This document shows positions 579 to 33,250 of a stretch of DNA of 34,565 nt, in pieces. Under the pieces are notes generated by a model. The model searched no databases and was not told the DNA's origin. It saw only the letters and a list, made by a program, of their open reading frames with translations. The translations under genes and the position numbers were made by a program. The stretch is from a virus (lineage: Duplodnaviria; Heunggongvirae; Uroviricota; Caudoviricetes). Numbering within the stretch: the first letter of the stretch is position 1; every line of letters begins with the position of its first letter. The stretch is from IMG/VR virus record IMGVR_UViG_2896595138_000002, positions 1-34,565 of that record, one strand, 5' to 3'.

Positions 579-1362
579 AATTCACAGGTATTTTTTCCCA
601 TCCTGTGGTTTCCTTGGCGTTTTCTAGTTTTTTTCAGATAGTTGCATTTTTTAAAAAGCATCCTAAGTTCGATCTCAGTGTCTATCTGGGGCCTATTTCT
701 GTCCCATATATGCCCCAAAAAAACTCCCCAACAGATAAGTAGTTTTTTCATGGATTTATGCGTAAAATCGATAATAGCTGGAAATAATTCAATACATGCA
801 CTCTCGAAAGTGCATCAGCCAGCCGCAGCACGTTCCTGCATAAGGCGTGCCTGCGGTTTTTCAACTATTCAGATACATCACTCCCATCACATTCATTCCT
901 CCGCATCAAAGGCATATAGGCTATATCACCTTGATATTTTTCTTTTTCAGATAAAAACTCTTATCTATGTATACTTTTAAACCCAATCCGTGTAGAGTCT
1001 CTGCATAAGATAGTTTGCAGTTGCCGCTTCAGCTTGCGCCATAAACCGCCTGATTTTTGCTGCCACCTGTTAGCATTCCTGTATACCTGAAACGACAATG
1101 TTTATCTACGAACTTTAAGAATACCCAAGATAAAAATTGTCAACTATATCATATATAACACATTACTAATTCGAGGCTATATGAACAGCATACTGATAAT
1201 CACATCTCTCCTTATCATATTCAGCATTTTTAGTCATGCCCTAATAAAATTAGGGATTGGCATATCCAATAACCCAGACAAAACCGATGTATAAGTCAAC
1301 ATATCCTGAATCAGACATACAATATCGCAATGAAAATCAATAATATTTTAAGGAATATCTTC

Positions 1363-3306: not shown

Positions 3307-3954
3307 TCAACGACCAATCACCACAACCTGACCACCATCCCCTTCATCTGCCGTGCTGATCTCCTGAGAAACCACGCGTGACCCCACGCGCATTTCACCG
3401 TACAGAACAGGCAGAACATTGCCCTGGGCAACCATGTTATCCAGTGAGGAGAAATAGGTGTTCTGTTTGCCGTTATCTGTACTTGCTGCCGTGGGCGTCC
3501 TGGCTTTCGGTGCCAGCATCTGCGCCACTCCGCCCAGGATCATACTGGCCCCTGCCGCATACATGCCCGATACAGCCGCGGCACCCAGCCAGCCCACAGG
3601 GTTCCACCATGCCACCGCAATCAGCGCCGCCCCCAGCACCACCTGAAGCACACCGCCGCTTTTAGCTCCCGCCAGACGCGGCACGATGTGGATCACGGCA
3701 CCATTTGCCAGCGGCTCATTAAGACGGGCAGACAATTCGGTTTCACCTGCATCACGCCCGGCAATCCGTACCTGATACCAGCCGTCACTCAGTTTCTGAC
3801 GAAATGCCGGGACCTGTGTGGACAGCGCCCGGATGGCTTCAGCCCCCGTTTTTACACGAAGGTCGATGCGGCGGCCAAATCGTTGTAAATCCCCGTAAAG
3901 GCAGATGCGTGCCATGCCCGGTGACGCCAGAGGGAGTGTGTGCGTCGCTGCCAT
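3307..3954 (-). CDS. I: Lambda I-like tail assembly protein
   Basis: 215-aa ORF MAATHTLPLASPGMARICLYGDLQRFGRRIDLRV...GGQVVVIGR, gpI-like. Confidence 0.85.
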   Translation of the reverse strand: MAATHTLPLASPGMARICLYGDLQRFGRRIDLRVKTGAEAIRALSTQVPAFRQKLSDGWYQVRIAGRDAGETELSARLNEPLANGAVIHIVPRLAGAKSGGVLQVVLGAALIAVAWWNPVGWLGAAAVSGMYAAGASMILGGVAQMLAPKARTPTAASTDNGKQNTYFSSLDNMVAQGNVLPVLYGEMRVGSRVVSQEISTADEGDGGQVVVIGR

Positions 3955-4594
3955 TTGTCGGTATACCTCTCTCGTTTGCTCAGTTGTTCAGGAATATGGT
4001 GCAGCAGCTCGCCATCACCACAGTAAATGGCGGCATGATTCGGCACCGATGAACCAAAGCAGCACAGCAGCACGTCGCCAGGCTGCGCCTCTGTCAGTGC
4101 GACACGGTAAAAACCAGTCGCCTCCATATTGTCAAGATAGAGATTCTGACCGTTACGCCACCAGTCATCCCCGCGATGAAAATCCGGCATCTCAATCCCC
4201 GCCAGATGATAAGCATCCCGGAACAGCGTGTAACAGTCCGTCACCCCGTGCTCAAAGCGCCGCCCGGTGAGATGCGGCACACAGCGGAACTTGTGAATCG
4301 CCCCCCGGCAGACCAGCCACCACGGCAAATCACTCTGCACCTGCAGCCGCCGGTCAGCCTCACTCAGCCAGGGCAGACCACAGGGATGACTGTGGACCAG
4401 TGCCACAATCTCACCCTGCATCTCTGCCTGCAGCCAGTCTTCCGGCGACATCCGGAAATAATCCTCCGGCTCACCGGAAATATTCACGCAGGGAAAATAT
4501 CTTTCCCCTCCGGCGTGCTTACCACGAAGCCGCACGACTCCGCTGGCGCACATCGCCGGGCGTGCGCCAGAATCGCTGATTCTGTCTGTGTCAT
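3852..4594 (-). pseudogene. K: Lambda K-like tail assembly protein (JAB/MPN + NlpC/P60), frameshifted near codon 29
   Basis: MTQTESAILAHARRCAPAESCGFVVSTPEG from ATG at 4594 continues as GERYFPCVNISGEPE...HSHP... in another frame (ORF 3852..4637). The shift sits at a homopolymer, plus-strand C-run 4505..4508. Confidence 0.75.
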
Positions 4595-15982: not shown

Positions 15983-18084
<2,102 letters not shown>

Positions 18085-18110
<26 letters not shown>

Positions 18111-20502: not shown

Positions 20503-20810
20503 TGCTGGTTCAGAGTTAAAAAAACTATTATTTTTTTCATATGTTACCGTAATATGTGAGTATCCATCGACTAGACACTAAGCAAAAAAGCTCCCGAAGG
20601 AGCCTTCATTTTCACTTTCTTAAATCTAACGACAGATGGCTAACATTTAAGTATTGTGAAATATTATCAAATGTAATCATCATTGATTTACAAAAGATAC
20701 ATTTTGCCCCGAAAGGATTTCTGTCAGAAACATCAAAAGATGTTGTTCTATACTGAGAACCATGGCAACACGGGCATCTAAAGTGAATATGGTTTGTAAT
20801 ATTTTCTACC

Positions 20811-21023
20811 TCAAAGTGCCACTACATGAACAGCTGCAGGGCCTTTAGGTCCGTTCTCAATACCAAATTCGACTTCCTGATTCTCAGTTAACGTTTTGAA
20901 ATCGTTGCTCTGAATAGCTGAGAAATGCACAAACACATCTTTGCTACCATCTTTCGGCGTGATGAAACCAAAACCTTTTTCAGGGTTAAACCATTTCACT
21001 AAACCAGTCATTTTGTTAGACAT
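20811..21023 (-). CDS. cspI: Cold-shock protein, CspA family
   Basis: 70-aa [70 protein letters not shown]; RNP1/RNP2 motifs. Confidence 0.9.
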
Positions 21024-21083
21024 TATTATTACCTTTTGAAGAAGTTACCCTTAAGATTTCAAGGATTTTGACTCATGGAAGAG

Positions 21084-22348
21084 TGAGGTAGCCTGAGTTT
21101 AACGGACACTCCTTCCTGAAATAGAATGGCATCAGAAGGAGCTAATAATGAGCAGAAAAACCCAACGTTACTCTAAAGAGTTCAAAGCCGAAGCTGTCAG
21201 AACGGTTCTTGAAAATCAACTTTCGATCAGTGAAGGCGCTTCCCGATTATCCCTTCCTGAAGGCACTTTAGGACAATGGGTTACCGCCGCCAGAAAAGGG
21301 CTCGGTACTCCTGGTTCCCGCACGGTGGCTGAACTGGAATCTGAAATTCTGCAACTGCGTAAGGCGTTAAATGAAGCTCGCTTTGAGCGAGATATATTAA
21401 AAAAAAGCAACAGCGTATTTTGCACAGGAGTCGCTGAAAAATACGCGTTAATCGAACAATGGCGACAACAATTTCCCATTGAAGCGATGTGTCAGGTATT
21501 TGGTGTATCCAGGAGCGGTTATTACAACCGGGTACAGCATGAACCCTCAGACAGAAAACAAAGTGATGAGCGGCTAAAACTGGAGATTAAGGTGGCACAT
21601 ATCCGCACTCGCGAAACATATGGAACCCGGCGGCTCCAGACGGAGCTGGCAGAGAATGGCATCATCGTTGGTCGTGACCGACTGGCACGTCTTCGTAAGG
21701 AGCTAAGGCTACGCTGTAAGCAGAAACGCAAGTTCAGAGCGACTACGAACCCGAACCACAATCTGCCAGTTGCGCCAAATCTGCTGAACCAGACGTTCGC
21801 TCCTACAGCACCAAATCAGGTCTGGGTGGCGGACCTGACGTATGTTGCCACACAGGAGGGATGGTTGTACCTCGCTGGCATCAAAGATGTTTATACGTGC
21901 GAAATTGTCGGCTACGCCATGGGAGCGCGCATGACAAAAGAGCTGACAGGTAAAGCCCTGTTTATGGCGCTCAGGAGCCAGCGCCCACCTGCCGGGCTAA
22001 TCCACCACCCTGATCGAGGTTCACAGTACTGCGCATACGATTACCGGGTCATACAGGAGCAGTTTGGTCTGAAAACATCAATGTCGCGTAAAGGTAACTG
22101 TTACGACAACGCTCCGATGGAAAGCTTCTGGGGAACGCTGAAAAATGAGAGCCTGAGCCACTATCGTTTTAATAACCGGGATGAAGCCATCTCAGTAATA
22201 CGGGAATACATTGAGATTTTCTACAATCGTCAGCGTCGTCACTCTCGTCTGGGGAATATCTCCCCGGCAGCCTTCAGGGAAAAATATCATCAGATGGCTG
22301 CTTAAAAAAAGAACAAATGGTAGTGTCCGCTATTGCCAGTACACCTCA
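21084..22348 (+). mobile_element. IS600 copy 2, complete, flanked by 3-bp direct repeat GAG
   Basis: Ends TGAGGTAGCCTGAG... and ...GCCAGTACACCTCA; GAG at 21081..21083 and 22349..22351; 1265 bp. Confidence 0.9.
21148..22305 (+). CDS. IS600 transposase as a single fused OrfAB reading frame (385 aa)
   Basis: A8 run at 21399..21406 (A7 in copies 1 and 3) joins orfA to orfB in one frame: ...DILKKSNSVFCTGVAEKYALIEQWRQQFPIEAMCQVFGVSR...; DDE domain present. Confidence 0.85.
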   Translation: MSRKTQRYSKEFKAEAVRTVLENQLSISEGASRLSLPEGTLGQWVTAARKGLGTPGSRTVAELESEILQLRKALNEARFERDILKKSNSVFCTGVAEKYALIEQWRQQFPIEAMCQVFGVSRSGYYNRVQHEPSDRKQSDERLKLEIKVAHIRTRETYGTRRLQTELAENGIIVGRDRLARLRKELRLRCKQKRKFRATTNPNHNLPVAPNLLNQTFAPTAPNQVWVADLTYVATQEGWLYLAGIKDVYTCEIVGYAMGARMTKELTGKALFMALRSQRPPAGLIHHPDRGSQYCAYDYRVIQEQFGLKTSMSRKGNCYDNAPMESFWGTLKNESLSHYRFNNRDEAISVIREYIEIFYNRQRRHSRLGNISPAAFREKYHQMAA

Positions 22349-22407
22349 GAGTCCTTTTTATTTAAATTTCACATTCAGCGCTAAAAATAATCCGATTTAA
22401 TATTAAT

Positions 22408-23434
<1,027 letters not shown>

Positions 23435-23539
23435 GGATATTTATCAGGATTTATCGGTTTCTGAACCCTAGATATGTTTATCTGTCCCGGCCTGTTGAAT
23501 CAGGCTGGGAAAAGGTAAAGACAATCAAGAGGATTATTT

Positions 23540-23812
23540 ATGGACAATAACACCATTTCTCTACAGGAGTTGCTCGACTGCATTTCCAGGCTTCGGGATG
23601 ATGTAAATGCCCTCACTGTTGCATTTTCATCTCTGGCCTTATCAATTCCCAGAGAACAAATGCAACCAACACTGGCATCGCTCCTGCTTGAATCACGCAA
23701 CCCCAAATGGTCCCAGGAACAACAAAATTCTTTCAAGTGGCTGGCGGCATTACTGGAAGAAAAATATGCTGGTAAAATTACCATTTCGGTGGAGTCTTCA
23801 GAGAATCAGTAA
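23540..23812 (+). CDS. Hypothetical 90-aa protein encoded antisense to the lysis cassette
   Basis: Strong SD (AAGAGG, 7 nt before ATG); predicted helical, non-membrane protein MDNNTISLQELLDCISRLRDDVNALTVAF... Confidence 0.5.
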   Translation: MDNNTISLQELLDCISRLRDDVNALTVAFSSLALSIPREQMQPTLASLLLESRNPKWSQEQQNSFKWLAALLEEKYAGKITISVESSENQ

Positions 23813-24122
23813 TTCTTCCTGGTAGCTTTCCTTTGTAGGTTATCCACACATTCTGCGCCTCTAAAATTATGGGGCGCTTTTCCGGCGACTGCTCATCCCC
23901 TTCACATAACCCGGCAGCAACATCCAGGAAGACCTGTCTGATGCTCATTCTGGCTGCTGCCTCATAAAACTCCAGCGCGGCACCTTCAACACGGTCCAGC
24001 GAGATGTCCAAGTCAAAAATTTCACCGTCAAAGCGTTTTTTGTCCCGTAACGCTAAAGTTACCGTAACTTTATTCTCAAAATTGCGGATCCCTTTCACAA
24101 TCAGTTCATAGTTTTGAGTCAT
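23778..24122 (-). CDS. Hypothetical 114-aa protein between holin and endolysin
   Basis: ATG 5 nt after the holin stop with GGGGAGAG SD; MTQNYELIVKGIRNFENKVTVTLALRDKKRFDGEIFDLDISLDRVEG... Confidence 0.6.
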   Translation of the reverse strand: MTQNYELIVKGIRNFENKVTVTLALRDKKRFDGEIFDLDISLDRVEGAALEFYEAAARMSIRQVFLDVAAGLCEGDEQSPEKRPIILEAQNVWITYKGKLPGRITDSLKTPPKW

Positions 24123-24126
24123 TGAA

Positions 24127-24342
24127 TTACTCTCCCCGTGCAGCCTTACGACGGTCCTCTCTGATTTTGAAATACAGGTTAGTCAGATATGTCAGCAGCC
24201 CAAACAGCCGACTCCCCAGCACGCCTATTGCCGCCCACTGAGACGGGGAAACCCTGTCCAGCAACTGCAGGAACCAGTAGCCCGTTCCCACCGCTGACGT
24301 GGTGTATGACACACCTGTTGTGATTTTTTCCATCTGGTCCAT
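24127..24342 (-). CDS. Class II holin (phage-21 S-type pinholin) with dual-start motif
   Basis: [44 protein letters not shown]...[21 protein letters not shown]; Met1 and Met4 dual starts. Confidence 0.85.
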
Positions 24343-24449
24343 ACCCCGTCTCCCGTTATCCGGAAGCTGACAACAATAAAAAAGCCACCAGTTAACTACT
24401 GATGGCTCTGATAACTCATGCAAGCGTCTCAGACGACCCACTGACACTA

Positions 24450-24853
24450 CCGGTGAGTTTAACGATACCTTCCATTTGACTGGCTCACTTTTTATGATGA
24501 TGCCGGTGCATTTATCTCCAGCACCAGACTTTCTATCTCAACGCCATACGTTGCATTTTTGGTAATATCCGTCAGCGTCAGTGCATTTAGTCCCACTGCC
24601 AGACTGTCTTTTATGGCCTGGAATGCCGGGCCAGTACGATGACGTAGTATCACTCCGGCTCAGTTGCACCACTGACCACCACATCACCTTCTGCTGCAAT
24701 CGCCTGCATCAGGGTATAAGGGGTTATGGCCACCGGACTACCAAACGGCTGCCAGCCCTCTTTCAGTTTATGTGTCAGCTTTTCCGCAAGATCTGACGGC
24801 GGCGCCGCCCTGACAACATCATAGTGTTTAAATGCCATGGTTCTTTCCACCAT
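24450..24853 (-). pseudogene. Small prophage protein (possibly DUF1737-type), apparently frameshifted
   Basis: ORF 24650..24853 (MAFKHYDVVRAAPPSDLAEKLTHKLKEGWQPFGSP...) stops, while protein-like sequence (...[45 protein letters not shown]) continues to 24450 in another frame. Confidence 0.45.
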
Positions 24854-25097
24854 CTGAAAAATAATTCTTTAAAATACCTGACATGTAATACAGAAAAAAC
24901 ACAAAACCATACCTTAAATAAAAACCTGATTATCAAGCAGATATGCATGGATAAACTACAAGACGAGATATAAACCACCCTGCATTTAAATAAACAATAA
25001 ACAACATCAGAAAAATAATTCTGCTCTATGGTTTAATTCAAAAATATCATTTATACTTTTCAGAACATCACCAGAAAGGCATAAACAAGGAAACTAA

Positions 25098-25433
25098 ATG
25101 AAGTGGATTGTGATTGATACAGTTATCCAGCCATCATGCGGAATATCTTTTTCAGTCATATGGAGTAAAATAAAATTAATAATCTGGTATCAATCGGATG
25201 CTTTCTTACCTCCTGAAAGTATATTTACACTGACTCACACAGGCATCATGCTCAATAACAAAGTGCTACCTGTAACCATTTACAACGTAGTACCATTCAA
25301 TAAAACATTCTGGAATTTAATCAAAAACAGCCAGGAATGCCCTACAAATACAGATAACGTATTGAATGAATGCTTTAATAACCGTTGCACTCTGCAAATA
25401 TGTCCTTATGGACTAAAACAACAAAGTCCATAA
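25098..25433 (+). CDS. Hypothetical Cys-rich 111-aa protein in an AT-rich island
   Basis: AGGA SD 6 nt before ATG; six Cys including [26 protein letters not shown]; no recognisable family. Confidence 0.35.
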
Positions 25434-25451
25434 GGAGTTTACTCACATCTG

Positions 25452-25489
25452 ACAAAATCAATATAAACAGCCCCTCCGGAGAGGGCTGG
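25452..25489 (-). terminator. Rho-independent terminator-like hairpin (minus strand)
   Basis: Near-palindrome CAGCCCCTCCGGAGAGGGCTGG followed on the minus strand by TTTATATTGATTTTGT. Confidence 0.45.
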
Positions 25490-26087
25490 AGAGTGGCGCT
25501 ATGTGCCATTGCATGGTGCCGGGTGCCTCCCGGTGAATTCAGTACCAGCACCTGAATCCGCGATTATCCCATATACCTACTCGCTGATTTCCCCTCCGCA
25601 CAGGGGGATTCACCATGCCAGTTTCTTTTAACAAACTCCCGCAAACCAGACAACAGTCAACCGCCTGAATTGTGAAGTATTTAAAAATTTCTCCCGCTAA
25701 CTGATACCCGGCTAACAGTCTGGCGTTTTCTTTTTCAGCAACGGGAAAGCAACAACCACCACACCCGCCACCAGCACACCGTCAGCCAGCACTGACATTA
25801 TCCGGCTGCTGCAATGCCATTCACAAAAACAGTAAGCAATCACTTTTTACCGTAACAGGTGATAATCCAGATATGTATCCTGAGGTGTACTGGCAATAGC
25901 GGACACTACCATTTGTTCTTTTTTTAAGCAGCCATCTGATGATATTTTTCCCTGAAGGCTGCCGGGGAGATATTCCCCAGACGAGAGTGACGACGCTGAC
26001 GATTGTAGAAAATCTCAATGTATTCCCGTATTACTGAGATGGCTTCATCCCGGTTATTAAAACGATAGTGGCTCAGGCTCTCATTTT

Positions 26088-26741
26088 TCAGCGTTCCCAG
26101 AAGCTTTCCATCGGAGCGTTGTCGTAACAGTTACCTTTACGCGACATTGATGTTTTCAGACCAAACTGCTCCTGTATGACCCGGTAATCGTATGCGCAGT
26201 ACTGTGAACCTCGATCAGAGTGGTGGATTAGCCCGGCAGGTGGGCGCTGGCTCCTGAGCGCCATAAACAGGGCTTTACCTGTCAGCTCTTTTGTCATGCG
26301 CTCTCCCATGGCGTAGCCGACAATTTCGCACGTATAAACATCTTTGATGCCAGCGAGGTACAACCATCCCTCCTGTGTGGCAACATACGTCAGGTCCGCC
26401 ACCCAGACCTGATTTGGTGCTGTAGGAGCGAACGTCTGGTTCAGCAGATTTGGCGCAACTGGCAGATTGTGGTTCGGGTTCGTAGTCGCTCTGAACTTGC
26501 GTTTCTGCTTACAGCGTAGCCTTAGCTCCTTACGAAGACGTGCCAGTCGGTCACGACCAACGATGATGCCATTCTCTGCCAGCTCCGTCTGGAGCCGCCG
26601 GGTTCCATATGTTTCGCGAGTGCGGATATGTGCCACCTTAATCTCCAGTTTTAGCCGCTCATCACTTTGTTTTCTGTCTGAGGGTTCATGCTGTACCCAG
26701 TTGTAATAACCGCTCCTGGATACACCAAATACCTGACACAT
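26088..26741 (-). CDS. IS600 OrfB (DDE integrase domain), 3' end frameshifted
   Basis: ORF ends ...ESFWER*, other copies read ...ESFWGTLKNESLSHYRF...; C-run 26089..26091 is 3 long. Confidence 0.8.
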   Translation of the reverse strand: MCQVFGVSRSGYYNWVQHEPSDRKQSDERLKLEIKVAHIRTRETYGTRRLQTELAENGIIVGRDRLARLRKELRLRCKQKRKFRATTNPNHNLPVAPNLLNQTFAPTAPNQVWVADLTYVATQEGWLYLAGIKDVYTCEIVGYAMGERMTKELTGKALFMALRSQRPPAGLIHHSDRGSQYCAYDYRVIQEQFGLKTSMSRKGNCYDNAPMESFWER

Positions 26742-26776
26742 CGCTTCAATGGGAAATTGTTGTCGCCATTGTTCGA

Positions 26777-27079
26777 TTAACGCGTATTTTTCAGCGACTC
26801 CTGTGCAAAATACGCTGTTGCTTTTTTTAATATATCTCGCTCAAGGCGAGCTTCATTTAACGCCTTACGCAGTTGCAGAATTTCAGATTCCAGTTCAGCC
26901 ACCGTGCGGGAACCAGGAGTACCGAGCCCTTTTCTGGCGGCGGTAACCCATTGTCCTAAAGTGCCTTCAGGAAGGGATAATCGGGAAGCGCCTTCACTGA
27001 TCGAAAGTTGATTTTCAGGAACCGTTCTGACAGCTTCGGCTTTGAACTCTTTAGAGTAACGTTGGGTTTTTCTGCTCAT
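26777..27079 (-). CDS. IS600 OrfA
   Basis: 100-aa ORF identical in pattern to copy 1 except L20P (RTVPENQ). Confidence 0.9.
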   Translation of the reverse strand: MSRKTQRYSKEFKAEAVRTVPENQLSISEGASRLSLPEGTLGQWVTAARKGLGTPGSRTVAELESEILQLRKALNEARLERDILKKATAYFAQESLKNTR

Positions 27080-27258
27080 TATTAGCTCCTTCTGATGCCA
27101 TTCTATTTCAGGAAGGAGTGTCCGTTAAACTCAGGCTACCTCAACAGGATGGACTTAGCAATGGCTGCTCCTGGCACAAAGCGGACAGTGATCACCGTTC
27201 TTACGACTACTTTCTGACTTCCTTCGTGACTTGCCCTAAGCATGTTGTAGTGCGATAC

Positions 27259-27282
27259 TTGTAATGACATTTGTAATTACAA
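27259..27282 (+). promoter_or_regulatory. relBE operator-like inverted repeats (TTGTAAT-N-ATTACAA) in the relB promoter region
   Basis: cTTGTAATgacatTTGTAATTACAAg 13 bp upstream of the relB start. Confidence 0.65.
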
Positions 27283-27294
27283 GAGGTGTAAGAC

Positions 27295-27534
27295 ATGGGT
27301 AGCATTAACCTGCGTATTGACGATGAACTTAAAGCGCGTTCTTACGCCGCGCTTGAAAAAATGGGTGTAACTCCTTCTGAAGCGCTTCGTCTCATGCTCG
27401 AGTATATCGCTGACAATGAACGCTTGCCGTTCAAACAGACACTCCTGAGTGATGAAGATGCTGAACTTGTGGAGATAGTGAAAGAACGGCTTCGTAATCC
27501 TAAGCCAGTACGTGTGACGCTGGATGAACTCTGA
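27295..27534 (+). CDS. relB: RelB antitoxin
   Basis: 79-aa ORF MGSINLRIDDELKARSYAALEKMGVTPSEALRLMLEYIADNERLPFKQTLLSDEDAELVEIVKERLRNPKPVRVTLDEL. Confidence 0.95.
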   Translation: MGSINLRIDDELKARSYAALEKMGVTPSEALRLMLEYIADNERLPFKQTLLSDEDAELVEIVKERLRNPKPVRVTLDEL

Positions 27535-27821
27535 TGGCGTATTTTCTGGATTTTGACGAGCGGGCACTAAAGGAATGGCGAAAGCTGGGCTCGACGGTAC
27601 GTGAACAGTTGAAAAAGAAGCTGGTTGAAGTACTTGAGTCACCCCGGATTGAAGCAAACAAGCTCCGTGGTATGCCTGATTGTTACAAGATTAAGCTCCG
27701 GTCTTCAGGCTATCGCCTTGTATACCAGGTTATAGACGAGAAAGTTGTCGTTTTCGTGATTTCTGTTGGGAAAAGAGAACGCTCGGAAGTATATAGCGAG
27801 GCGGTCAAACGCATTCTCTGA
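27534..27821 (+). CDS. relE: RelE mRNA interferase toxin
   Basis: 95-aa ORF MAYFLDFDERALKEWRKLGSTVREQLKKKLVEVLESPRIEANKLRGMPDCYKIKLRSSGYRLVYQVIDEKVVVFVISVGKRER...; ATGA overlap with relB. Confidence 0.95.
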   Translation: MAYFLDFDERALKEWRKLGSTVREQLKKKLVEVLESPRIEANKLRGMPDCYKIKLRSSGYRLVYQVIDEKVVVFVISVGKRERSEVYSEAVKRIL

Positions 27822-27892
27822 ACCAAAGCATGACATCTCTGTTTCGCACCGAAGGTGACACTTCTGCTTTGCGTTGACAGGAGAAGCAGGCT

Positions 27893-28048
27893 ATGAAGCA
27901 GCAAAAGGCGATGTTAATCGCCCTGATCGTCATCTGTTTAACCGTCATAGTGACGGCACTGGTAACGAGGAAAGACCTCTGCGAGGTACGAATCCGAACC
28001 GGCCAGACGGAGGTCGCTGTCTTCACAGCTTACGAACCTGAGGAGTAA
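27893..28048 (+). CDS. hokD: Hok-family type I toxin (HokD/RelF-like), 51 aa
   Basis: MKQQKAMLIALIVICLTVIVTALVTRKDLCEVRIRTGQTEVAVFTAYEPEE, translated directly from the sequence (below the ORF-track size cutoff). Confidence 0.85.
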   Translation: MKQQKAMLIALIVICLTVIVTALVTRKDLCEVRIRTGQTEVAVFTAYEPEE

Positions 28049-28116
28049 GAGACCCGGCGAGTGAGAAATCCCTCGCCACCTCTGATGTGGCAGGCATCCT
28101 CAACGCACCCGCACTT

Positions 28117-28147
28117 AACCCGCTTCGGCGGGTTTTTGTTTTTATTT
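28117..28147 (+). terminator. Rho-independent terminator after hokD
   Basis: AACCCGCttcgGCGGGTTTTTGTTTTTATTTT. Confidence 0.75.
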
Positions 28148-28265
28148 TCAACGCATTTGAAATTCTGGATGGTGCCGGAATAGAATCAAAAATACTTAAG
28201 TAGCGCGCAGGGATAAGAGGGATGGACCCCGAACAGGGGAGTGCTATTTATCTGGAAGGATTCTG

Positions 28266-28517
28266 ATGATGAACATCGAAGAACTGCGTAAAATTTTTTG
28301 TGAAGATGGCCTCTATGCTGTGTGCGTTGAAAATGGAAATATTGTTAGTCATTACCGCATTGTGTGTTTGCAAAAAAATGGGGCTGCGTTAATTAATTTT
28401 GTGGATGCCCGAGTGACGGACGGATTTATCTTGCGCGACGGTGAGTTTGTCACTTCATTACAGGCATTGAAAGAGATCGGAATAAAAGCTGGCTTTTCTG
28501 CTTTTTCAGAAGAATAA
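28266..28517 (+). CDS. rem: Small prophage protein of unknown function (Rem-like position and size)
   Basis: 83-aa ORF immediately downstream of relBE-hokD, as for rem in Qin; identity by position and length only. Confidence 0.5.
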   Translation: MMNIEELRKIFCEDGLYAVCVENGNIVSHYRIVCLQKNGAALINFVDARVTDGFILRDGEFVTSLQALKEIGIKAGFSAFSEE

Positions 28518-28582
28518 ACTCATCTACAATCTTGCGCGGGCTGAACTCCCGCTGAGTAACACCGTGCCACCGGAGAAAACCG

Positions 28583-28861
28583 ATGGCACGCAACGCAAAA
28601 TATTACAATCATGATAATTCGACCGTTCTTGCCCACACGCACGAGCGGTATTCTCACGCATTTAAGTCAGACTGGTACCAGCATCCCTCATGCACTGAAG
28701 AACAGGCCGAATGGCTCATTCAGTGTTACCGCAGGCGCGGATGCGAGGTTAAAAAAGCCCTTAGCCTCGACTACCGTCACTGGATAATCTCCGTCAGGCT
28801 CCCTTACTCCGAACAGCCACCGCGTCCGTCCCGCACATTCCAGCAACGGATCTGGAGGTAA
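28583..28861 (+). CDS. Hypothetical 92-aa protein, stop/start-coupled to the following gene
   Basis: ORF ends TAA 1 nt before the GTG start of the next gene; Cys/His-containing. Confidence 0.4.
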   Translation: MARNAKYYNHDNSTVLAHTHERYSHAFKSDWYQHPSCTEEQAEWLIQCYRRRGCEVKKALSLDYRHWIISVRLPYSEQPPRPSRTFQQRIWR

Positions 28862-28862
28862 C

Positions 28863-29912
28863 GTGCGGGTATTACTTCGACCTGTTCTGGTTCCGGAACT
28901 CGGGCTGGTGGTCCTTAAGCCCGGTCGTGAATCCATGCCGGTATTCCACAATACCCGGTTACTGGTGGAGCCGGAACCGAAAAGCATGCGTAATCTGCCG
29001 TCCGGGGTCGTTCCTGCCGCTCGCCAGCCGCTGGTGGAAGACAAAACATTGCTGCCGTTTTTCAGTAACGCACGGGTGATTCGTGCTGCTGGTGGTGCTG
29101 GTGCATTGTCTGACTGGCTGTTGCGCCATATTAAATCCTGCCAGTGGCCACACGGCGATTATCATCACAGCGAAACCGTCATTCACCGTTATGGTACCGG
29201 CGCAATGGTGTTGTGCTGGCACTGCGACAACCAGCTGCGTGACCAGACATCCGAATCACTCGAGCAACTTGCTCATCAAAACCTGTCAGCATGGATGATT
29301 GACGTCATCGGTCACGCAATAAGCGGTACGCAGGAGCGTGAACTATCTCTGGCTGAATTATCCTGGTGGGCGGTCCGCAATCAGGTGGCGGACGCGCTAC
29401 CGGAAGCGGTATTACGTCGTTCGCTGGGGTTGCGTGCGGAAAAAATCCGCTCAATGTTCCGTGAAAGCGACATCGTACCGGGAGAGCAGACCGCCACCAG
29501 CATACTGAAACAGCGCACAAAAAATCTTGCGCCGCTGCCTCACGCCCACCAGCAACAGAACCCACCACAGGAAAAGACGGTGGTCAGCATTGCCGTTGAT
29601 CCTGAGTCTCCGGAATCTTTCATGAAACGACCTAAACGTCGCCGCTGGGTTAACGAGAAATACAAACGCTGGGTGAAGACACAGCCGTGTGCGTGTTGTG
29701 GTAAGCCAGCCGACGATCCCCATCACCTGATTGGTCATGGTCAGGGCGGAATGGGGACAAAATCTCACGATATTTTCACGCTACCGCTGTGTCGGGAGCA
29801 TCACAACGAGCTTCATGCGGATCCTCTGGCGTTCGAAGAAAAGCATGGTTCTCAGGTTGATTTAATTTTTCGTTTTCTTGATCACGCCTTTGCAACTGGC
29901 GTGCTTGGGTAA
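28863..29912 (+). CDS. ydfU: DUF968-like protein with C-terminal HNH-type Cys/His motif (YdfU-like)
   Basis: 349-aa ORF; ...QPCACCGKPADDPHHLIGHGQGGMGTKSHDIFTLPLCREHHNELH...; sits between rem and rusA/Q. Confidence 0.6.
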   Translation: MRVLLRPVLVPELGLVVLKPGRESMPVFHNTRLLVEPEPKSMRNLPSGVVPAARQPLVEDKTLLPFFSNARVIRAAGGAGALSDWLLRHIKSCQWPHGDYHHSETVIHRYGTGAMVLCWHCDNQLRDQTSESLEQLAHQNLSAWMIDVIGHAISGTQERELSLAELSWWAVRNQVADALPEAVLRRSLGLRAEKIRSMFRESDIVPGEQTATSILKQRTKNLAPLPHAHQQQNPPQEKTVVSIAVDPESPESFMKRPKRRRWVNEKYKRWVKTQPCACCGKPADDPHHLIGHGQGGMGTKSHDIFTLPLCREHHNELHADPLAFEEKHGSQVDLIFRFLDHAFATGVLG

Positions 29913-29924
29913 AAGAGGTGACTG

Positions 29925-30282
29925 ATGCTCATAGATTTGGTTTTACCTTACCCGCCGACGGTGAACACTTACTGGCGACGCCGTGGCAGCACATATTTTA
30001 TCTCGGAGGAGGGAAAGCGTTATCGCCGGGCTGTGGCGCTTATTGTTCGCCAGCAGCGGCTGAAATTAAGCCTGTCCGGAAGGCTGGCGATAAAGGTGAT
30101 TGCAGAGCCACCGGATAAGCGTCGTCGCGACCTGCGACAATATCCTGAAAGCACCGCTGGATGCGCTGACGCATACGGGAGTGTTAATGGACGATGAGCA
30201 GTTTGATGAAATCAATATCGTTCGTGGTCAGCCAGTATCTGGTGGACGTCTGGGGGTGAAGATTTACCCCATAATGCATTAA
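29925..30282 (+). pseudogene. rusA: RusA-like Holliday junction resolvase, frameshifted
   Basis: ORF 29925..30197 (MLIDLVLPYPPTVNTYWRRRG...EPPDKRRRDL) then ORF 30100..30282 (...DNILKAPLDALTHTGVLMDDEQFDEINIVRGQPVSGGRLGVKIY) in the +1 frame; single-base insertion near 30121. Confidence 0.75.
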
Positions 30283-30296
30283 GAGCAGGTCAAAAA

Positions 30297-31118
30297 ATGA
30301 AACTGGAAGATTTACCGAAATACTACTCCCCAAAATCCCCTGGCCTGACCGATGCATCGGCCTCAACGTCAAAAGATGCGCTGAGTATCACTGATGTGAT
30401 GGCCGCGCAGGGCATGACACAGAATCGGGCTGAGATGGGTTTTTCTGCGTTCCTGGGGAAAATGGGCATCAGTATGAATGACAGGGCGCGGGCAACAGAA
30501 TTACTGGCAGATTATGCACTCAGTCGGTGCGATCGTGTGGCGGCGTTGAGAAAACTTCCGGCAGAAATAAAACCGGTAGTGATGCGCATTATGGCTTCGT
30601 ACGCTTTTGAGGATTATGCCCGCAGCGCAGCGAGTAAAAAGCAGTGCCCTTGTTGCTATGGGGAAAAATTTATTGAAAGCATAGTTTTTACAAACAAGGT
30701 CCAGTATCCGGATGGTAAGCCGCCGGTATGGGCAAAGTGTACGAAAGGTGTGTATCCGTCTTACTGGGAAGAATGGAAAAAAGTCAGGGAGGTGGTAAAA
30801 GTTGCCTGTCCGGAGTGTGGCGGAAAGGGTGAGGTTTCCACCGCCTGTAAGGATTGCCGTGGGCGTGGTGTCGCCATTCATCGTGAAGAGTCGGTAAAAC
30901 GTGGTATGCCTGTTATCAGAGACTGCCAGCGTTGTGGTGGTCGTGGCTATGAAAGACTACCATCAACGGAGGCATTTAATGCTATATGCGAGGTGACAAA
31001 CCAGATAACACGCGCGTCATGGGAAAAAACAGTTAAGAAATTTTATGATGCGCTGGTGACCCGGTTTGATATTGAAGAAGCATGGGCTGAGCGGCAGTTA
31101 AAAAAGGTAACTAGGTAA
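30297..31118 (+). CDS. Late-gene antiterminator Q-like protein with DnaJ-type CxxCxGxG zinc-finger repeats
   Basis: 273-aa ORF just upstream of a promoter/terminator pair and tRNAs; motifs CPECGGKG, CKDCRGRG, CQRCGGRG; placement after rusA typical of lambdoid Q. Confidence 0.6.
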   Translation: MKLEDLPKYYSPKSPGLTDASASTSKDALSITDVMAAQGMTQNRAEMGFSAFLGKMGISMNDRARATELLADYALSRCDRVAALRKLPAEIKPVVMRIMASYAFEDYARSAASKKQCPCCYGEKFIESIVFTNKVQYPDGKPPVWAKCTKGVYPSYWEEWKKVREVVKVACPECGGKGEVSTACKDCRGRGVAIHREESVKRGMPVIRDCQRCGGRGYERLPSTEAFNAICEVTNQITRASWEKTVKKFYDALVTRFDIEEAWAERQLKKVTR

Positions 31119-31131
31119 CAAGGTAACAAGG

Positions 31132-31159
31132 TTGATTTTTCCGGAATCTGTGGTAAATT
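31132..31159 (+). promoter_or_regulatory. Candidate late promoter (PR'-like): TTGATT-16 nt-TAAATT with TG extension
   Basis: Motif match 14 bp after the Q stop codon. Confidence 0.4.
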
Positions 31160-31208
31160 CGTCATAACGATGGGCGTTTTATGCCTGACGTTAGAAGAGT
31201 TTCTACAA

Positions 31209-31232
31209 CCCGCCGCTGAGCGGATTTTTTAT
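31209..31232 (+). terminator. Candidate tR'-like terminator (short GC stem + T-run)
   Basis: CCGCtgaGCGG then ATTTTTTATT. Confidence 0.35.
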
Positions 31233-31269
31233 TGCGAAATTAATTACGGACCGTTATTATTCTGCTCCC

Positions 31270-31345
31270 GGCCCTTTAGCTCAGTGGTGAGAGCGAGCGA
31301 CTCATAATCGCCAGGTCGCTGGTTCAAATCCAGCAAGGGCCACCA
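31270..31345 (+). tRNA. ileZ: tRNA with CAU anticodon (Ile2/ileZ-like, or Met)
   Basis: 76 nt GGCCCTTTAGCTCAGTGGTGAGAGCGAGCGACTCATAATCGCCAGGTCGCTGGTTCAAATCCAGCAAGGGCCACCA; cloverleaf folds with a 7-bp acceptor stem and encoded CCA. Confidence 0.85.
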
Positions 31346-31443
31346 TCACAAACCGGCATTAGCTTATCAGGAAGAGCAGACGACACGATAACAGGGTTGT
31401 TGGTGCGGGGCGGGTCCCGATGGCGGTCCATTATCGGTATTCA

Positions 31444-31520
31444 GCGTTGTTAGCTCAGCCGGACAGAGCAATTGCCTTCTAAGCAATCGGTCACTGGTTC
31501 GAATCCAGTACAGCGCGCCA
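31444..31520 (+). tRNA. argN: tRNA-Arg (anticodon UCU), argN/argU-like
   Basis: 77 nt GCGTTGTTAGCTCAGCCGGACAGAGCAATTGCCTTCTAAGCAATCGGTCACTGGTTCGAATCCAGTACAGCGCGCCA; anticodon loop CTTCTAA. Confidence 0.85.
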
Positions 31521-31630
31521 TATTCATTCTTCCAGATTCCTTCCGGCAGAGCCTTATACTGAAATATACTTGGCTCAGGATATTGTTGAAAATATTATAT
31601 GTTTGTCAAAAATAAAAGTTCTGTTAAGTA

Positions 31631-31984
31631 TTGATTGAGTATTTGTTATACGGTCTAATGGTTTTTTCAGCATTAAATATTTATCATTCATATGGTGCGG
31701 GTAGAGTGAATATTGATGAGGCGTCGGGGTGTTTCATCCTTAGGCAGCGTATTGATATAGTCAATGCAGCACGAGCAAAGGCCTTCAGCCGTTTGACAGT
31801 TTTGTTCTGTACTCCTGATCGTCTTTCGGGAAGAGACGTTATTATTCTGAATAGTGATGCTATACAGAGGGTTTGCGATGAGTTCATGGTTGCTAATTCA
31901 GAATTATTTGCTCTTGTTCAGGAGTACAACAGAATAGCCAGGACCTGTGGTATGGATGAACTTCGGATTACTCATCTGGGGTAG
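31631..31984 (+). CDS. Hypothetical protein (117 aa) in the Q/tRNA moron slot, probably 3'-truncated by IS600
   Basis: AT-rich ORF; its stop codon TAG ends 1 nt before the IS600 left end; no recognised family; first in-frame ATG at 31658. Confidence 0.35.
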   Translation: MIEYLLYGLMVFSALNIYHSYGAGRVNIDEASGCFILRQRIDIVNAARAKAFSRLTVLFCTPDRLSGRDVIILNSDAIQRVCDEFMVANSELFALVQEYNRIARTCGMDELRITHLG

Positions 31985-31985
31985 A

Positions 31986-33250
31986 TGAGGTAGCCTGAGT
32001 TTAACGGACACTCCTTCCTGAAATAGAATGGCATCAGAAGGAGCTAATAATGAGCAGAAAAACCCAACGTTACTCTAAAGAGTTCAAAGCCGAAGCTGTC
32101 AGAACGGTTCCTGAAAATCAACTTTCGATCAGTGAAGGCGCTTCCCGATTATCCCTTCCTGAAGGCACTTTAGGACAATGGGTTACCGCCGCCAGAAAAG
32201 GGCTCGGTACTCCTGGTTCCCGCACGGTGGCTGAACTGGAATCTGAAATTCTGCAACTGCGTAAGGCGTTAAATGAAGCTCGCTTTGAGCGAGATATATT
32301 AAAAAAAAGCAACAGCGTATTTTGCACAGGAGTCGCTGAAAAATACGCGTTAATCGAACAATGGCGACAACAATTTCCCATTGAAGCGATGTGTCAGGTA
32401 TTTGGTGTATCCAGGAGCGGTTATTACAACCGGGTACAGCATGAACCCTCAGACAGAAAACAAAGTGATGAGCGGCTAAAACTGGAGATTAAGGTGGCAC
32501 ATATCCGCACTCGCGAAACATATGGAACCCGGCGGCTCCAGACGGAGCTGGCAGAGAATGGCATCATCGTTGGTCGTGACCGACTGGCACGTCTTCGTAA
32601 GGAGCTAAGGCTACGCTGTAAGCAGAAACGCAAGTTCAGAGCGACTACGAACCCGAACCACAATCTGCCAGTTGCGCCAAATCTGCTGAACCAGACGTTC
32701 GCTCCTACAGCACCAAATCAGGTCTGGGTGGCGGACCTGACGTATGTTGCCACACAGGAGGGATGGTTGTACCTCGCTGGCATCAAAGATGTTTATACGT
32801 GCGAAATTGTCGGCTACGCCATGGGAGAGCGCATGACAAAAGAGCTGACAGGTAAAGCCCTGTTTATGGCGCTCAGGAGCCAGCGCCCACCTGCCGGGCT
32901 AATCCACCACTCTGATCGAGGTTCACAGTACTGCGCATACGATTACCGGGTCATACAGGAGCAGTTTGGTCTGAAAACATTAATGTCGCGTAAAGGTAAC
33001 TGTTACGACAACGCTCCGATGGAAAGCTTCTGGGGAACGCTGAAAAATGAGAGCCTGAGCCACTATCGTTTTAATAACCGGGATGAAGCCATCTCAGTAA
33101 TACGGGAATACATTGAGATTTTCTACAATCGTCAGCGTCGTCACTCTCGTCTGGGGAATATCTCCCCGGCAGCCTTCAGGGAAAAATATCATCAGATGGC
33201 TGCTTAAAAAAAGAACAAATGGTAGTGTCCGCTATTGCCAGTACACCTCA
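31986..33250 (+). mobile_element. IS600 copy 4, complete, no target-site duplication
   Basis: Both termini present; flanks AGA / TCA differ; 1265 bp. Confidence 0.9.
32050..33207 (+). CDS. IS600 fused OrfAB transposase (385 aa)
   Basis: A8 run at 32301..32308, as in copy 2. Confidence 0.85.
   Translation: MSRKTQRYSKEFKAEAVRTVPENQLSISEGASRLSLPEGTLGQWVTAARKGLGTPGSRTVAELESEILQLRKALNEARFERDILKKSNSVFCTGVAEKYALIEQWRQQFPIEAMCQVFGVSRSGYYNRVQHEPSDRKQSDERLKLEIKVAHIRTRETYGTRRLQTELAENGIIVGRDRLARLRKELRLRCKQKRKFRATTNPNHNLPVAPNLLNQTFAPTAPNQVWVADLTYVATQEGWLYLAGIKDVYTCEIVGYAMGERMTKELTGKALFMALRSQRPPAGLIHHSDRGSQYCAYDYRVIQEQFGLKTLMSRKGNCYDNAPMESFWGTLKNESLSHYRFNNRDEAISVIREYIEIFYNRQRRHSRLGNISPAAFREKYHQMAA

Follow-up and report, generated by a model that had tools for sequence, protein, structure and literature searches.

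Organization of the Lysis Cassette

The window analyzed here is a stretch of 34,565 nucleotides (positions 1 to 34,565 of IMG/VR record IMGVR_UViG_2896595138_000002, Caudoviricetes) that carries, on its minus strand, a class II (phage 21 S-type) holin gene and a lysozyme-family endolysin gene separated by a gap of 692 bp. The 71-residue holin (24127..24342), which has Met codons at positions 1 and 4, matches "P21 holin S" in Pfam (PF04971, E 2.8e-31) as well as PHROG holin families, and it is from this family membership that we infer the label pinholin. The 169-residue endolysin (22925..23434; PF00959, E 2.3e-24) begins with an Ala/Ser-rich, SAR-like segment, and beyond it on the same strand lies the gene for an Rz-like i-spanin (DUF2514, 22408..22905; PF10721, E 6e-38; phrog_312 "Rz-like spanin"). 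Judged by alignment, the Rz reading frame likely starts at a GTG overlapping the position of the normal endolysin stop of its relatives, and a candidate Rz1-like ORF with an LTSC lipobox is embedded within 22458..22754.

Two ORFs occupy the gap, a minus-strand ORF of 114 codons (23778..24122; hereafter ydfR) and a plus-strand ORF of 90 codons (23540..23812; hereafter orf90), which converge and share 35 nt at their 3′ ends. The coordinates that a first-pass annotation had assigned to the holin, the endolysin, and both gap ORFs were all reproduced in the program-made ORF list, and its view of the translation signals is borne out: the ATG of ydfR lies 4 nt past the holin stop with GGGGAGAG upstream within the holin 3′ end, as expected of coupling to the holin, while orf90 is indeed convergent on the plus strand, with an AAGAGG Shine-Dalgarno sequence at 23527..23532, 7 nt ahead of its ATG. 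Both are genuine genes, being intact in nearly all relatives, evolving with dN/dS well under 1, and matching known families. It is on this last point that the annotation, which had found a recognizable family for neither ORF, needs correction, as the 114-residue product belongs to the DUF1327/YdfR family of Pfam and the 90-residue product matches PHROG 2411 over its full length. The homology searches it had proposed for both ORFs returned these sequence and profile families; fold searches returned nothing specific for either protein.

The annotation had further regarded the gap as an anomaly, on the premise that the holin and endolysin genes are normally adjacent. This premise fails for S21-type cassettes, in which the normal order is holin-ydfR-lysozyme, since YdfR is annotated between the lysozyme and the class II holin in all of the E. 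coli matches listed, in deposited phages, and in the Qin prophage of E. coli K-12. The Qin cassette (holin-ydfR-rrrQ-rzpQ, the holin being labeled essD in its record) encodes the same succession of class II holin, DUF1327/YdfR protein, lysozyme, and DUF2514 Rz-like spanin. It differs from the window in having no orf90 insert and a direct overlap of ydfR with rrrQ, and in the YdfR protein itself, which in K-12 comprises 103 residues and ends in a C-terminal tail unrelated to that of the 114-residue form. The window, for its part, has an insertion sequence beyond Rz, and the 3′ end of its endolysin gene is frameshifted. Alignments with relatives at both the protein and the DNA level place a 1-nt deletion and substitutions near this end (~22925..22950), by which the endolysin comes to 169 instead of 177 residues, the last 10 residues are replaced (...RRDQEMH in place of ...RRDQESALACWGIDQ), and the stop/start overlap with Rz is lost.

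Functional Shiga toxin phages share the arrangement. Both Stx2 phage 86 and phiSTEC1575-Stx2k possess an S21-type holin gene followed by ydfR and then by a small ORF on the opposite strand. In phage 86, however, YdfR has 268 residues and the slot is filled by an unrelated antisense ORF of 104 codons, whereas phiSTEC1575-Stx2k carries orf90 itself (87% identity) and differs in what comes after it (L177, 1285..3303), namely two further holin-like genes, which form a second set, and an M15 metallopeptidase gene in place of the lysozyme gene. The latter phage thus has two holin systems in tandem. The gap genes are, in short, members of catalogued families in a very common and already known arrangement, and the window itself adds little to the normal layout of phage 21/Qin-type cassettes, both proteins being in databases under their family names.

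YdfR, a Conserved Cassette Member

The ydfR product matches PF07041 (E 1.3e-41; 141.2 bits against a cut-off of 25) across residues 1-112, in addition to several PHROGs, and "YdfR family protein" is the NCBI annotation in thousands of genomes. Megablast of the region retrieved related DNA from 4411 of 5426 complete E. coli genomes, K-12 Qin included. Selection on both gap genes was assessed with 47 distinct sequences from 80 viral contigs; ydfR is intact in every one of them, with dN/dS of ~0.38-0.40. The N-terminal domain (~residues 1-74) is conserved, 80% of residues 1-74 being identical and 95% similar to those of K-12 YdfR, and the C-terminal tail is variable. Past an SLKTPP motif the terminus depends on lineage, reading KW where orf90 follows and ESQP where the slot is empty, and longer forms of YdfR exist besides that of phage 86, with 176-183 residues and an extension of 60-70 residues. 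The AF2 model consists of three strands and a long helix (residues 5-73, moderate confidence), with residues 74-114 modeled at low confidence. The maximum 19-residue Kyte-Doolittle hydropathy is 1.03, and no transmembrane or signal segment is present. YdfR matched none of the holin, antiholin, or lysis families of Pfam and PHROG and none of the PADLOC anti-phage defense models, and a sequence search against solved structures found no relative.

Functional information comes from the K-12 protein. Residues 1-72 of K-12 YdfR bind the catalytic half of RNase E (residues 1-597) in a two-hybrid assay, Rne 1-598 is recovered together with Strep-tagged YdfR from affinity columns, RNA co-purifies with YdfR as well, and overexpression of YdfR changes few transcripts (PMC13232886, 2026). 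Our literature search on the two families found no functional work beyond this study. By position, ydfR would be a constant part of the late transcription unit, co-transcribed with the holin gene S and translated just after it to give a cytoplasmic product. The most likely activity, extrapolated from homology, is binding of the conserved N-terminal domain, late in infection, to the catalytic half of the host RNase E, to RNA, or to both; the link to RNase E is reported for K-12 YdfR, from which the 114-residue variant differs at its C-terminus. The product would then be an accessory of RNA metabolism standing outside the holin-endolysin-spanin machinery.

Several phage proteins modulate RNase E, among them phiKZ Dip, T7 gp0.7, and T4 Srd. 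YdfR resembles these by analogy, as a phage or prophage protein whose K-12 form is reported to bind the host enzyme. The K-12 protein is unlike them in that the reported contact is with the catalytic N-terminal half and not with the scaffold, and in its small effect on the transcriptome.

orf90, a Member of a Small Protein Family

The 90-residue protein aligns from residue 1 to residue 90 with positions 1-90 of the 90-position phrog_2411 profile (E 9.5e-56) and is annotated in databases as a hypothetical protein (e.g., WP_000370546.1). Its reading frame is intact at 89-90 codons in 46 of the 47 sequences, with dN/dS of ~0.36 and an excess of variable sites at third codon positions (15/12/34), and substitutions are conservative across 25 sequences. 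A profile search of 1.84 billion representatives yielded only 20 matches, which include full-length relatives of 81-97 residues with 26-56% identity; the distant ones come from Klebsiella, Atlantibacter, Sodalis, and Brenneria. The relatives share the pattern ELLxxIxxLRxxVNxLxxAFSYLAFS...E...T.A.L.FES.N. Taken together, the pattern of substitution and the distant homologues identify orf90 as a real protein-coding gene of a small uncharacterized family.

The product is acidic (pI 4.6) and soluble, with a maximum 19-residue Kyte-Doolittle hydropathy of 0.96 and no transmembrane segment, and its AF2 model has four helices (pLDDT 71); it would accordingly be described as a small acidic four-helix cytoplasmic protein. 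The last ~9 codons of orf90 are antisense to the 3′ end of ydfR, in a stretch of ydfR found in cassettes both with and without the insert, and the C-terminal tail of the protein, unconserved and modeled with low confidence, fits a tail that is read through this sequence. Truncated variants of 50-61 residues are common in databases, and selection on orf90 in cryptic prophages may accordingly be weak. Searches of orf90 against Pfam, NCBIfam, PADLOC, and the PDB gave no match, and its distant relatives gave nothing significant in Pfam, NCBIfam, or PADLOC, where five of them had no match and the protein P0197 had one marginal match (E 0.005). Fold searches were uninformative, the search against BFVD giving nothing with E below 0.001. 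An origin of orf90 as an inverted copy of the C-terminal extension of the long YdfR forms (176-183 residues) was considered and rejected (BLASTP E 1.6).

The Insert Carrying orf90

Alignment with a cassette without orf90 (L003) delimits an insert of ~293 bp (~23494..23786) that consists of a 46-bp leader and orf90 codons 1 to ~82. Empty cassettes are otherwise collinear, with ydfR ending ...TPPESQP and the lysozyme gene following after 63 bp. Among 80 viral contigs chosen by YdfR similarity, the slot contains orf90 in 36, is empty in 33, and holds 520-550 bp in seven and ~930 bp in one, with no lysozyme match in the remaining three. The insert is found in 1221 of 5426 E. coli genomes, about one in five, and orf90 occurs in three deposited phages (Chlobot, 783R2, and phiSTEC1575-Stx2k). 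The GC content of the insert, 43.0%, stands in small contrast to the 48.0% of the cassette, the 46.1% of ydfR, and the 51.2% of the endolysin gene R. The insert would have entered the ydfR-endolysin spacer in the opposite orientation, bringing orf90 with it.

At the left edge of the insert, the sequence reads as an inverted repeat, CCCGGCCTG-TTGAAT-CAGGCTGGG (23486..23509), and the TTGAAT of its loop is the only −35-like hexamer upstream of orf90. The weak promoter-like pair to which it belongs, TTGAAT-N19-(T/G)ACAAT, scores within the range of shuffled sequences. A scan for consensus σ70 promoters and terminators in the window and in loci L001, L164, and L167 detected none upstream or downstream of the orf90 gene, and a weight-matrix promoter scan of the same loci and four more gave no candidate above shuffled background. 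Homology to the copies of orf90 on islands begins only ~17 nt upstream of the ATG, which argues that no promoter travels with the gene. The literature search found no expression data for orf90.

The orf90 Family in Other Genomic Contexts

Relatives of orf90 are found well away from lysis cassettes. In a Klebsiella-type phage (L164), one runs antisense close to the terminase genes, another is antisense between the tail genes M and L in Atlantibacter (L167), and a third lies in the Sodalis chromosome beside a P-type ATPase gene. Solitary paralogues are next to an autotransporter gene on plasmid pBCE049-1 and next to iha on an E. coli chromosomal island (the pair L175, 3014..3283, and L176, 3017..3289); they share ~56% protein identity and 73-74% DNA identity with orf90, both are flanked by IS remnants, and one cluster member occurs on at least 1000 contigs.

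The distant family members have a common hairpin just ahead of the Shine-Dalgarno sequence (L164, ~3930..3990; L167, ~3935..3990; L170, ~770..812). Its stems covary (GCGGAG/CTCTGC, AAAGAGG/CCTCTTT, CCGAAG/CTTCGG), its loop is conserved as G(G/A)ATGGCTGATTA, and a second hairpin with the loop GTGGGA is common to L164 and L167. These leader hairpins have no match in Rfam, and the leader of orf90 in the window is without the element. GGA in the hairpin loops together with GGA in the Shine-Dalgarno sequence recalls CsrA-type sites, and a structured leader of this kind would suggest post-transcriptional control in some distant members of the family.

Accessory Genes or Lysis Regulators

We think it fairly probable that the two gap genes, the fixed member ydfR and a moron-type orf90, are accessory genes without relation to each other in a lysis cassette of the standard lambdoid (phage 21/Qin) type. 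The principal competitor has one or both genes tuning lysis, with orf90 RNA or protein damping leaky expression of S, ydfR, and R or delaying triggering, or with YdfR regulating the pinholin/SAR-endolysin pair from the cytoplasm. The position of ydfR inside the cassette is fixed in thousands of genomes, S, ydfR, and orf90 were kept together in phiSTEC1575-Stx2k despite replacement of the endolysin module, and orf90 points toward ydfR, overlaps it by 35 nt, and is followed by no predicted terminator, so a plus-strand transcript would run antisense into ydfR and S. This evidence is offset by the properties of the proteins: neither has a transmembrane or signal segment, and neither resembles, in sequence or fold, a known antiholin or lysis regulator, the category of S107, T4 RI, and P1 LydB. 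The distribution of orf90 also counts against lysis tuning, since its relatives reside in tail operons and islands, on plasmids, and in the Sodalis chromosome, where the surroundings contain no lysis genes. Roughly half of the most closely related cassettes do without orf90, which must therefore be dispensable for lysis. We consider lysis tuning unlikely on balance; the suggestion of the first-pass annotation that the antisense gene might modulate lysis timing finds no support here, and such a role for orf90 is disfavored. The cargo gene that it had named as the other option is the reading favored by the evidence for the plus-strand ORF.

A different role for the overlap would be that orf90 and the C-terminal part of its convergent neighbor form a two-gene module whose products interact or cross-regulate through overlapping 3′ ends. 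Genes of the orf90 family do overlap a small convergent minus-strand ORF in four unrelated contexts (ydfR itself and ORFs of 62, 71, and 85 codons in L164, L167, and L170, respectively), and the 71-residue partner ends in ...KGNIFSDQIFGDLKKPPSY (DLKKPPSY), resembling the ...KGKLPGRITDSLKTPPKW (SLKTPPKW) of YdfR. However, hhalign comparisons of the partners with YdfR are not significant (probabilities of 2.9%, 0.4%, and 1.9%), and with values of at most 3% the idea that the partners are YdfR homologues is unsupported. The SLKTPP motif is present in ydfR with or without orf90, the island, plasmid, and Sodalis copies of orf90 have no such partner, and most genomes with YdfR are without orf90 (4411 against 1221), all of which makes the module improbable. 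The broader proposal that orf90 represents an undescribed, Enterobacterales-only helical family, antisense in late operons and converging on a small late gene, which perhaps works with RNase E-binding YdfR, as protein or as antisense transcript, on the stability of lysis mRNA or its leakiness in lysogens, strikes us as very improbable. Barely credible is the view that the true gene of the insert is a 94-codon minus-strand ORF (23500..23784) co-directional with the lysis genes, or that the insert is noncoding and orf90 a database artifact. The ATG of this ORF overlaps the ydfR stop (AAATGGTAA), and because the two frames have wobble positions in common, its statistics mimic those of orf90, with the third-position pattern repeated and dN/dS apparently at 0.26. 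Yet its frame is interrupted in 7 of the 47 sequences, and that of orf90 in 1; in a set of 13 chosen regardless of orf90, the interrupted frames number 4 and 2, respectively. The Cys/Ser-rich product of the 94-codon ORF matches no family. Protein relatives as distant as 26% identity that keep the length and motifs exist for the plus frame alone, and since those distant loci have no open antisense frame, the plus frame is the coding frame; the 94-codon ORF was rejected on the grounds of ORF integrity and the distant protein homologues of orf90.

Returning to the accessory-gene reading, orf90 is read as a moron-type cargo gene on the basis of its distribution and orientation, with the definition of a moron taken from PMC2629481. 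The family moves between late-operon sites of enterobacterial prophages and sites on pathogenicity islands and plasmids, which suggests that its expression is probably uncoupled from the late operon and may come, for instance, from the prophage; the target of orf90 is probably the host cell and not lysis. Lambda bor/iss, which lie downstream of Rz, and IraM, which lies upstream of the holin, offer parallels, each being, like orf90, a single small gene opposed to late transcription, located in or beside the lysis cassette, and present or absent among collinear relatives. The bor and iss products are lipoproteins, and bor has a documented lysogen promoter. Unlike these, orf90 encodes a soluble acidic helical protein and has no detectable promoter or terminator. 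The residual value of the locus lies in how common YdfR and PHROG 2411 are as prophage genes, orf90 alone being carried by roughly 1 in 5 E. coli genomes, with Stx phages and iha/autotransporter islands among the carriers.

State of the Prophage and Neighboring Features

Proteins identical to the YdfR and orf90 products of the window have been deposited from Shigella (flexneri/boydii). By sequence, the window contains three near-identical IS3-family copies, presumably IS600-like, at 21084..22349 (plus strand), 25880..27143 (minus), and 31986..33250 (plus). The Q antiterminator gene (30297..31118), RusA, DUF968, tRNA-Met, and tRNA-Arg lie on the plus strand (27144..31985), and the lysis and packaging genes lie on the minus strand (on the 22350..25879 side) with an IS copy between them and the Q region, whereas in the relative L001 a single strand carries Q, the tRNAs, IraM, and S in collinear order. 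By this comparison, the lysis cassette of the window appears cut off from its late promoter. The earlier description of orf90 as antisense to late transcription consequently stands with respect to its orientation relative to S and R, but here no late promoter is visible upstream, Q being on the other strand beyond the IS. A single IS-mediated inversion as the source of the Q/tRNA orientation was rejected, as the 3-bp flanks of the second and third IS copies (TCC/ACA and AGA/TCA) do not fit it.

The large terminase gene (gpA-like, 16186..18110, minus strand) is split into ORFs of 421 and 230 codons that overlap at ~16845..16878, which suggests a frameshift in a defective prophage. The prophage as a whole looks defective or decaying, and late transcription at this cassette would in that case be historical.

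The IS copies differ in detail. The first and third have A8 at the slippery run (~21392..21399 in the first), by which orfA and orfB are fused into one ORF of 385 codons, and the second has A7 at this run and lacks one G at the equivalent of position 22130. The first copy is bounded by a clean GAG target duplication, and the second and third are without matching flanks.

Just ahead of the holin region, on the opposite strand, is an IraM anti-adapter gene (25098..25433, plus strand) that shows 100% identity to the annotated E. coli SCU-105 copy. It is adjoined by an Rfam match to the STnc100 sRNA (25459..25647, minus strand, 117 bits). A second Rfam match, to the cspA thermoregulator (20780..21131, minus strand, 105 bits), reaches slightly into the left end of the first IS copy and suggests that this copy sits in or beside the leader of a prophage cold-shock gene.
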